Below, one piece after another: positions 8,984 to 54,670 of a DNA stretch of 64,000 nt. The first letter of the stretch is position 1; each line of letters starts with the position of its first letter. The DNA is from Nitrososphaeria archaeon (GTDB lineage Archaea > Thermoproteota > Nitrososphaeria > JACIWG01): the NCBI GenBank assembly GCA_963752255.1, contig CAVVXT010000019.1, positions 224,001-288,000 of the forward strand, given 5' to 3'. The position numbers and the translations under genes were made by a program. The notes below the pieces were generated by a model. It made no database searches and was not told where the DNA came from. It worked only from the letters and a program-made list of their open reading frames with translations.

Positions 8984-9508
8984 CTACTTTTTAGCTTCTT
9001 CGGGTGCGGGTTTGGCCGAGGGCGCTGGAACCCCCTGTCCAGCGACTGCAGCAGGTCTAGCAACCCCTTTTCTCACACCAACTGTCAGCCCTTTCCTGCC
9101 CGTCGTTCTAGTCCTCTGCCCCCTGACTTTTAATCCAAGAGAGTGTCTTATACCCTTCCAGCTCATCGTATCTCTCTCCCTTCGAACATCATCTTTTATG
9201 ATGAAATCCAAGTCGGAGCCTATTAGATGCATATTGGAACCAGAAGATGGATCTTTTCTTCTGTTCAGAAGGTATGCGAGCTCCAACTTGCTTTGAAGAT
9301 TTTTTGTATATTCATCTATCCTATTTAGGTCAGCTTCGGAAAGCGAACCCAACCTCGTATCAGTGTCAATATTTAGCTTGTTTAAAATGGCGTTTGCAGT
9401 GTTAAAACCTATACCTTTAATATCCGCTAGAGCGGCTAGAAGCTTCTTTTTACCGTTAAGGTCTTTGCCACCTAACCTGACTATTTGTCTAAACTCCGAT
9501 GATGACGT
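8984..9508 (-). CDS. rps13: 30S ribosomal protein uS13, inferred ACG start
   Basis: Frame extends upstream of the ORF-track TTG (9352) through EFRQIVRLGGKDLNG..IKGIG to ACG at 9508; in-frame TAA at 9521-9523; C-half has GIRHSLGLKVRGQRTRTTGR. Confidence 0.93.
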   Translation of the reverse strand, partial: TSSSEFRQIVRLGGKDLNGKKKLLAALADIKGIGFNTANAILNKLNIDTDTRLGSLSEADLNRIDEYTKNLQSKLELAYLLNRRKDPSSGSNMHLIGSDLDFIIKDDVRRERDTMSWKGIRHSLGLKVRGQRTRTTGRKGLTVGVRKGVARPAAVAGQGVPAPSAKPAPEEAKK

Positions 9509-9580
9509 ATTCTCCTCGCCTTACAAACTCCCTAAATTACTCCTTATTAAATAGTTTTTTGTCAAAACCAGAAAATAGAA

Positions 9581-53535: not shown

Positions 53536-53931
53536 CTACTTCAGAGGTACATACAGACTTGAACGGGATGCACCAATGCCTGGGGTGCCGTGAACAACCT
53601 TTTTGTTTGTTATCGCGTATTCTCCGAGATAGTGGCCTATCATCTCAGGTTTTATTTCTACAGGAAAGAACTCTTTTCCATTATGGACTTGAATGGTTGC
53701 ACCGACCATGAATGGTAGAATGATCATGTCCCTTGCATGAGTCTTTACAGGGTTCTTTTTGGGGATTTCCTTCGATTTTTTGACATCGTCGAGAAGTTTT
53801 GTCTTTTCTCTACTTAACCCTCTGTTGAGGGAACGACGCATCCGTGATGGCAGAAGACCGATGAAGATCTCATACGACATTTCCTGCAACTGTTCAAGCG
53901 TGTAACCCCTATACTTAAACTCCTTAGGCGT
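53536..53931 (-). CDS. rps19: 30S ribosomal protein uS19, inferred ACG start
   Basis: ACG CCT AAG GAG TTT AAG TAT AGG GGT = (M)PKEFKYRG; GAGGTGA SD; in-frame TGA at 53941-53943; [26 protein letters not shown]. Confidence 0.94.
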
Positions 53932-53935
53932 CCTT

Positions 53936-54670
53936 CTACCTCACCTCTAACATTCTCCTTATACGTTTCCTACCAGTTTTTCTCGGCGCTATGTGACCAA
54001 CTTTTCTGCCAGGTGGGGCATTTCTTGAAGTCGAAGTTGACTTTCCGGGATGCTGGTGTCTGCCTCCACCGAACGGGTGGTGTACGGCAGCCATCGCAAT
54101 ACCTCTCATACGCGGATAGAGTTTGATCTTTGCTTCCATCAAGTGATACTTCGCTCCGGCTTTAAGAAACGGTTTTTCTCCGAAGCCGCCCCCTGCTATT
54201 ACTCCCACTGTGGCTCTACACCTCCCATCAAGTAAAATCATCTTGCCGGATGGGAACTTTATAATACTGCCTTGAGCCGACTGCGAAAACAGTATTGCAG
54301 ATGTGCCGGCGGCTTTAACTAACTTGCCGCCATCTCCTGGATGTCTTTCAATATTACATATGGTGGAACCTTCGAGGACTTCTTTAAGCATCAAAATATT
54401 ACCATTTCTCATTCCGGCCTTCGGCCCCAGTTCGATATCTGAACCAACTACGGTGCCCTTGATTGCAGGAAGGTAATAGAACTTTTCTCCGATCTTCAAT
54501 TGAGCCAATGGTGCCATTCTTCCACGTTCATGTTGCAGTCTCATAACTGAGCCTACAGTCTTCTCTTCGCTAATAGGCGGGTAAAGCGTCTGACTAATTT
54601 TGCCAACCTTAGGGGCACGATACTGTGAATGCCCCATCCCTCTTCTCTGCTGAATCAACGACTTGCCCAT
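53936..54670 (-). CDS. rpl2: 50S ribosomal protein uL2
   Basis: [27 protein letters not shown]. Confidence 0.97.

Follow-up and report, generated by a model that had tools for sequence, protein, structure and literature searches.

Translation initiation at near-cognate ACG codons is known in eukaryotes and their viruses, for example in AAV VP2 and Sendai virus C'. The rare start codons of prokaryotes are the ATT, ATC, ATA and CTG of NCBI table 11, exemplified by the AUU of E. coli infC, and E. coli has a handful of such rare starts. To our knowledge ACG is not among the start codons of table 11, and the usual gene finders accept ATG, GTG and TTG only. In plant organelles, ACG start codons are edited C-to-U to AUG.

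For archaea, one review of initiation (PMC4705826) states that GUG and UUG starts are permitted besides AUG and that start selection is more relaxed than in eukaryotes, and the same review, together with a second paper (PMC6237735), describes the eukaryote-type factors aIF1, aIF1A and aIF2 that archaea share. Ribosome profiling of Haloferax volcanii found about 30% of putative alternative start sites to be near-cognate, and that study set these sites aside (PMC7261190). In the literature that we searched (main texts, largely outside the subscription journals), ACG starts in archaea or Thaumarchaeota were not described. Within that literature, near-cognate initiation is known in kind, and its use as the recurrent, conserved and sole start of core archaeal genes is undescribed.

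Here we report on the gene for ribosomal protein uS13 (rps13) in a 64,000-nt stretch, referred to as the window, of the genome of a Nitrososphaeria archaeon, an uncultured inhabitant of soil and peat, in which translation very probably initiates at an ACG codon, as judged from the sequence and its relatives. Like ACG initiation in eukaryotes and viruses, the uS13 codon would be read by the initiator tRNA although its middle base is mismatched; unlike the eukaryotic codons, it would be placed by Shine-Dalgarno (SD) pairing on a short leader rather than by scanning and Kozak context, and unlike the ACG codons that open alternative isoforms in eukaryotes and viruses, it would be the sole start of an essential, highly expressed gene. 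It resembles the prokaryotic rare starts in being SD-led and one base from AUG, and differs from archaeal GUG and UUG in that the mismatch is at the second position of the codon instead of the first. The likeness to plant organelles lies in a genomic ACG at the Met position of conserved genes, whereas the lineage studied here also has ATT and CTG starts, which are inexplicable by editing.

The source genome (G000) comprises 2.1 Mb in 19 contigs, is 94.7% complete, and contains the window as G000:C19:224001-288000. The features of the uS13 locus, in window coordinates, are as follows.

8984 to 9508, minus strand: uS13 (rps13) coding sequence from ACG to TAG, 174 aa plus stop, with domain PF00416
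9506 to 9508, minus strand: ACG, proposed initiation codon, homologous to the ATG of orthologues
8984 to 8986, minus strand: TAG stop codon of uS13, to which the frame is open from the ACG
9521 to 9523, minus strand: in-frame TAA that closes the frame upstream, read from the codon string
9482 to 9484, minus strand: ATA, codon 9 counted from the ACG, the sole serious alternative near-cognate start
9350 to 9352, minus strand: TTG, first canonical start, codon 53 counted from the ACG, giving a 122-aa product minus the 52 N-terminal residues
9511 to 9522, minus strand: SD-like leader AAGGCGAGGAGA, with AAGGCGA at a 7-nt spacer and an overlapping GAGGAGA at a 2-nt spacer
9544 to 9551, minus strand: TATA-like box TTTAATAA, which, like AAAACTATTTAATAAGG, is conserved throughout the family

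An earlier note, made from the letters of the window, had proposed that uS13 starts at this ACG, and its codon string was reproduced letter for letter on the minus strand: TAA(9523-9521) GGC GAG GAG AAT ACG(9508-9506) TCA TCA TCG GAG TTT AGA CAA ATA GTC AGG. The in-frame TAA is where the note had placed it. No ATG, GTG or TTG occurs in the uS13 frame between this TAA and TTG 9352, and among the five codons that follow the TAA, the ACG itself included, only the ACG is one mismatch from ATG. When uS13 was read from the ACG, Pfam Ribosomal_S13 (PF00416) matched at 128.4 bits (cut-off 31; E 2.8e-37) over residues 11-139, spanning profile positions 1-128 of 128. The domain thus begins well 5' of TTG 9352, in agreement with the note, which had seen the conserved N-terminus upstream of the first canonical start; the coding N-terminus of uS13 lies upstream of any canonical start and is bounded by an in-frame stop. 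The gene is single copy in the source genome, and one copy per genome was found in 41 of 41 relatives. Downstream, on the same strand, follow uS4, uS11 and an RpoD-like ORF, named from their translations.

The leader of uS13 carries AAGGCGA at 9522-9516, 7 nt ahead of the ACG. The gene for uL15 (minus strand, 44893) has AAGGTGA followed by 7 nt and ATG, so that the equal spacing reported in the note for the two genes holds. Against the 16S 3' end of the source genome, GGATCACCTCCT, the best predicted duplex, that of GAGGAG, reaches -7.2 kcal/mol and ends 2 nt before the ACG, where the other cases described below have 5-8 nt, and the 7-nt register of AAGGCGA has a central mismatch to the 16S 3' end. 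A TATA-like box is present as noted, at 9551-9544, one base off the 9545-9552 originally given. In a leaderless mRNA the transcript would open with the start codon, at some 25 nt from the TATA box; the uS13 ACG stands 36 nt past the end of the box, and this distance, taken with the usual archaeal TATA-to-start spacing, suggests a leader of about 12-14 nt.

We compared the uS13 start among relatives, the family comprising 10 genomes. At the codon homologous to the ACG, all eight family genomes outside the genus, which belong to four other genera, have ATG (MSSSEFR, MSSTEFR, MSLAEFK), and the same-genus orthologue, from a second species (G001; uS13 94% aa identity), shares the ACG with an identical TAA GGC GAG GAG AAT ACG. 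The ACG with an identical leader was also found on metagenome contig L230 (93%), and metagenome contigs L229 (90% identical), L231 and L232 have ATG. Since L229 has ATG and L230 has ACG, the change from ATG to ACG falls on the branch between them. Across this branch, codons 2-9 differ from those of L229 by two synonymous changes and by no non-synonymous one; inside the ACG clade these codons are invariant, so selection on them is not measurable within the clade. Of 20 loci from the other families of the class, most carry TTG or ATG at the homologous position or close to it (L/M-S-x-Q-E-Y-R and similar), and the segment S-x-x-E-[FY]-R, which precedes IVR, is preserved from family to family within the class. 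These comparisons of orthologues, and of the reads described below, support the ACG as initiator and agree with the note in making it a substitution, with ACG in place of the orthologues' ATG, rather than an indel.

Two A-to-G changes distinguish the leader of the ACG clade from that of L229 (GGCAAAGAGAAT to GGCGAGGAGAAT), and the predicted duplex is -7.2 kcal/mol in the clade versus -2.9 kcal/mol in L229, its nearest ATG relative. Strengthening of the SD as compensation for the ACG was considered on this account and rejected as a general explanation, because other ATG orthologues reach -5.3 to -9.0 kcal/mol and the comparison rests on one event.

Indel-type breaks affect 8 of 481 compared genes in the source assembly, so that an error check on the ACG was needed; none of these breaks lies at the uS13 locus. 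Of 21 public runs listed, 20 contained the stretch in whole or in part, and no run is recorded as RNA. Contigs from four of four runs, from four studies, cover 9506-9508 and agree with the window, with no other letter there; the note had left it to the reads at 9507 to decide, and they gave ATG no support. Three of the four runs have a depth of 2.3-4.4, and one of them is possibly the source sample. The fourth run yielded a 26-kb contig at depth 40.8 in which 38 of 1001 positions differ from the window and the ACG is still there, a divergence that makes it a different strain or species. The ACG is kept in diverged genomes, namely G001, L230 and the diverged strain in run X8. The agreement of a second species, a metagenome contig and the contigs of four studies excludes a sequencing error at the uS13 ACG.

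A survey of start codons was made by comparing 2085 crude gene calls of the source genome with the 775-kb contig C3 of a sister-genus genome (G004) as stop-to-stop translations, which gave 481 best pairs at ≥45% identity. Rows were retained if the alignment continued for 5 or more codons on the upstream side of the first canonical start and bore a coding signature there, defined as ≥60% identity, two or more synonymous differences, and third-position changes equal to or exceeding the sum of first- and second-position changes. Twenty-six rows passed. The 18 rows on the G000 side consisted of 8 split-gene fragments, 7 intact start-less genes, 1 EF-2 gene and 2 short rows left aside; the 8 on the G004 side were 5 start-less genes, EF-2 and 2 left aside. 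Among the seven start-less genes of the source genome, ACG is found in uS13, uS19, a GalT/HIT-like gene and priL, and ATT in proteasome alpha and DUF655; the seventh, an ABC permease, has ATA or CTG in G000 and ACG there in G004.

An SD 4-mer lies within 20 nt of the start in all seven of these genes, versus 190 of 521 high-confidence ATG control genes, and the near-cognate starts overall stand 2-9 nt behind an SD-like motif. In long ORFs of the source genome, 0.96% of the codons are ACG. Opposite the first canonical start of G004 genes, 5 of 113 non-canonical partners are ACG, against about 1.1 expected from codon frequency, although two of these five are ambiguous in having a canonical codon next door. 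With hisF, which was added by the comparison described below, ACG occupies the exact start-homologous codon in five genes of the source genome (uS13, uS19, GalT-like, priL and hisF), which is more than chance. Start-less genes amount to 7/481 in G000 and 5/481 in G004, and to 2/198 in G013, which belongs to another family; the frequency in the source genome is above the handful of cases known for E. coli.

The eight split genes of the source genome, for example two PdaD paralogues (C19, C2) and hisB (C3), are broken by frameshifts, several of them at short homopolymers, and are probably assembly indel errors. A RibL-like gene (C14:70555-70902) was likewise examined as an ACG start and rejected: a conserved ATG GTG AAA lies 4 nt upstream in another frame, the A-run is one base longer than in G004, and the gene was not counted because a homopolymer indel (an extra A) explains it better.

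Gene by gene, with names taken from Pfam, canonical codons and ACG (TTG, ATG, GTG, ACG) were found to interchange at the same codon within the family. The second case in the window is uS19.

53536 to 53931, minus strand: uS19, with ACG at 53929-53931, behind GAGGTGA at 53941-53947 plus 9 nt

The homologous uS19 start is ACG in the source genome only, ATG in G001 and 7 others and TTG in G004, and the G001 gene has its ATG behind a leader otherwise identical to that of G000. This uS19 ACG may be a recent mutation or a base error. In the GalT-like gene, ACG is present in G000 and G001, ATG in G005 and TTG in six genomes. In hisF, ACG is shared by G000 and G001 though codons 2-3 differ, and the other six genomes have GTG, TTG or ATG. 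The priL gene (G000:C14:31092-32141) has ACG in G000, G001 and G004, TTG in G003 and, in four genomes, ATG two codons downstream. In G000 and G001 the priL leader contains an out-of-frame ATG just ahead of an A4 run, upstream of the ACG, and one more A would bring it in frame; the priL start in this genus could be an indel artefact. We kept priL as an ACG case, less certain for G000, because G004 has a clean ACG without the upstream ATG.

Two genes of the family have near-cognate starts other than ACG. In proteasome alpha (G000:C19:572407-573135; L096-L104), ATT stands 5-6 nt behind AGAGGTG(A) in nine of nine family loci, the first canonical codon lies 20 to 182 codons downstream of it, and the Pfam N-terminal signature falls at residues 8-29 counted from the ATT; in 21 of 21 loci from other families of the class, this position or its neighbour holds ATG or TTG. 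In DUF655 (G000:C14:6837-7391; L120-L127), the eight copies found have ATT (4) or ATC (4) behind A[AG]GGTGA plus 6 nt. Both genes fit directly among the rare prokaryotic starts.

As a control outside the family, 800 kb (C1 800001-1600000; L341-L380) of the complete 1.62-Mb genome G013, from family f5, gave 198 pairs with the source genome. In an Lrp/AsnC-like gene of G013 (offset + 572143 of the joined 800-kb piece), CAGGTG is followed by 6 nt and an ACG that aligned exactly to the ATG of the source genome, the first canonical codon being codon 73. In a PLP-enzyme gene (rc 569314), AAGGTGA is followed by 8 nt and CTG, and the first canonical codon is codon 53. With two cases in 198 pairs of another family, a restriction of non-canonical starts to the family of the source genome was rejected, and SD-led near-cognate starts are a trait of the class rather than of one family. 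From sequence comparison, then, starting about 1-1.5% of compared genes at near-cognate codons (ACG, ATT/ATC, CTG) behind an SD appears to be a habit of the class Nitrososphaeria.

The EF-2 row of the survey was of another kind. The gene, on the minus strand outside the window, is interrupted at about 563,950-564,030 of G000:C19 (also L087:2412-2482 and L381-L388): its N-terminus in the source genome, MPRYKSTTEALKIIGNKDQIRKA, runs into a stop, and the part with the P-loop lies in another frame without a start codon. The interruption measures 26-31 nt, stands between QIR and LGVVAHVDHGKTT, and was found in seven of seven family genomes with a locatable P-loop, with a frame offset that varies between genomes; in four other families, 20 of 20 loci have the motif QIRNF[GS][VI]IAHVDHGKTT unbroken. 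The stretch is predicted to fold into a helix, a 3-nt bulge, a 4-bp helix (UUCG:CGAA), a 3-nt bulge and a helix. For G000 the fold has a z-score of -4.57, with 0 of 200 shuffles as good; in G004 the centroid is exactly the motif, and the inner helix covaries between genera (GGCCUAG..CUAGCC versus GGUUUAG..CUAAACC). Cuts after the second base of each bulge would take 31 nt out in G000 and 30 nt in G004, yielding QIRNLGVVAHVDHGKTT. On this modelling, the interruption looks like a candidate bulge-helix-bulge mRNA intron that would be cut by the tRNA splicing endonuclease; the only such intron in a protein gene that we found in the literature searched is that of cbf5 (PMC2738675). Separately, EF-2 ORFs of about 1340-1370 aa without a contiguous P-loop motif occur in L387 (G008), L392 (G035), L393 (G010) and G036, and look like genes with an intein inserted at the P-loop.

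For uS13, the following course is proposed. An ancestral ATG would have become ACG by one T-to-C transition. The mRNA would be made from its own promoter (TATA 9544-9551) with a short leader of about 12-14 nt holding the SD-like stretch, which would pair with the 16S 3' end, fix the mRNA on the 30S subunit and place the ACG in the P site. The ordinary initiator tRNA (CAU) could then read the ACG, tolerating a C-A mismatch in the middle of the codon, and insert methionine, which would probably be removed to leave SSSEFR... The sequences establish the ACG in the DNA, its conservation and recurrence, its homologous position and the SD-like leader; its decoding as a start, by this tRNA and as Met, is what we infer. 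The initiator tRNA is ordinary (A1:U72, GGG/CCC anticodon stem, anticodon CAU), and the sole CGU tRNA is tRNA-Thr, an ordinary G1:C72 elongator. A dedicated ACG-reading initiator, defined by anticodon CGU, A1:U72 and three G:C pairs in the anticodon stem, was not found among the tRNAs of the source genome at its completeness of 94.7%.

The factor aIF1 bears on how efficient such starts might be. S. solfataricus aIF1 is reported to reject an AUU model mRNA (PMC4705826), from which near-cognate starts are not expected to be efficient, and R31, Y32 and K34 in loop 1 of P. abyssi aIF1 are reported to bind the 30S subunit or stabilise the 30S:mRNA complex (PMC6237735). We found the gene (SUI1) in 8 of 10 genomes of the family and in 39 of 41 relatives. 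Its loop 1 (L309-L316) reads RRFGKQ in all eight family sequences, versus mostly K-P in other families of the class, and the gene's own start is TTG or GTG. An altered or lost aIF1 as the cause of relaxed selection was rejected, the factor being present with no telling alteration seen.

It is improbable that the ACG is the wreck of a mutated ATG and that uS13 translation begins beyond it, at ATA 9482-9484 (codon 9) or TTG 9352. The ATA is also near-cognate, and since Pfam begins at residue 11 its product would retain the whole domain, yet it lies at least 26 nt behind the SD-like stretch and so lacks an SD at a usable distance. No canonical codon precedes TTG 9352 in the frame, but its product would be missing 52 residues, a loss that cuts into the S13 domain. 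S-x-x-E-[FY]-R is kept across the class, with only synonymous change across the ATG-to-ACG branch. Abandoned starts should, by reasoning, scatter over the one-base changes of ATG; instead, ACG recurs in five genes at the SD-spaced codon.

Very little probability attaches to editing of the C at 9507 to U in the mRNA, by which AUG would be restored. The change required is exactly C to U, but we know of no C-to-U mRNA editing in archaea, no editing machinery was found here, and ATT/ATC and CTG stand at start positions in the same lineage, where C-to-U editing cannot make AUG. An error of assembly or sequencing at the ACG, or a uS13 pseudogene, we regard as exceedingly unlikely: homopolymer-type frameshifts do occur elsewhere in the assembly and the uS19 ACG is confined to this genome, but the uS13 ACG is found again in a second species, on a metagenome contig and in the contigs of four studies, and it opens a frame of 174 codons in the only uS13 copy. 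Initiation at ACG 9506-9508 is thus the reading that we prefer for uS13. On the wider proposition that SD-led mRNAs of Nitrososphaeria, and perhaps of archaea generally, regularly use ACG as a start that is stable in evolution and swaps freely with ATG, TTG and GTG, we consider the case for and against to be evenly balanced.

For annotation, gene finders limited to ATG, GTG and TTG would drop 52 residues from uS13 and, in this lineage, would shorten or overlook uS19, HisF, PriL and proteasome alpha. Such calls can bias completeness estimates based on marker genes, phylogenies of ribosomal proteins and counts of pseudogenes. As to mechanism, the findings suggest that archaeal start choice behind an SD is less strict than the ATG/GTG/TTG rule allows for, with a hierarchy like that of near-cognate codons in eukaryotes. 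If ACG is indeed a regular start, about 1% or more of the genes in these lineages would be mis-annotated, the archaeal initiation complex would accept a eukaryote-like near-cognate set (ACG, AUU/AUC, CUG), and its efficiencies would suffice for highly expressed essential genes such as those of ribosomal proteins, primase and the histidine pathway.
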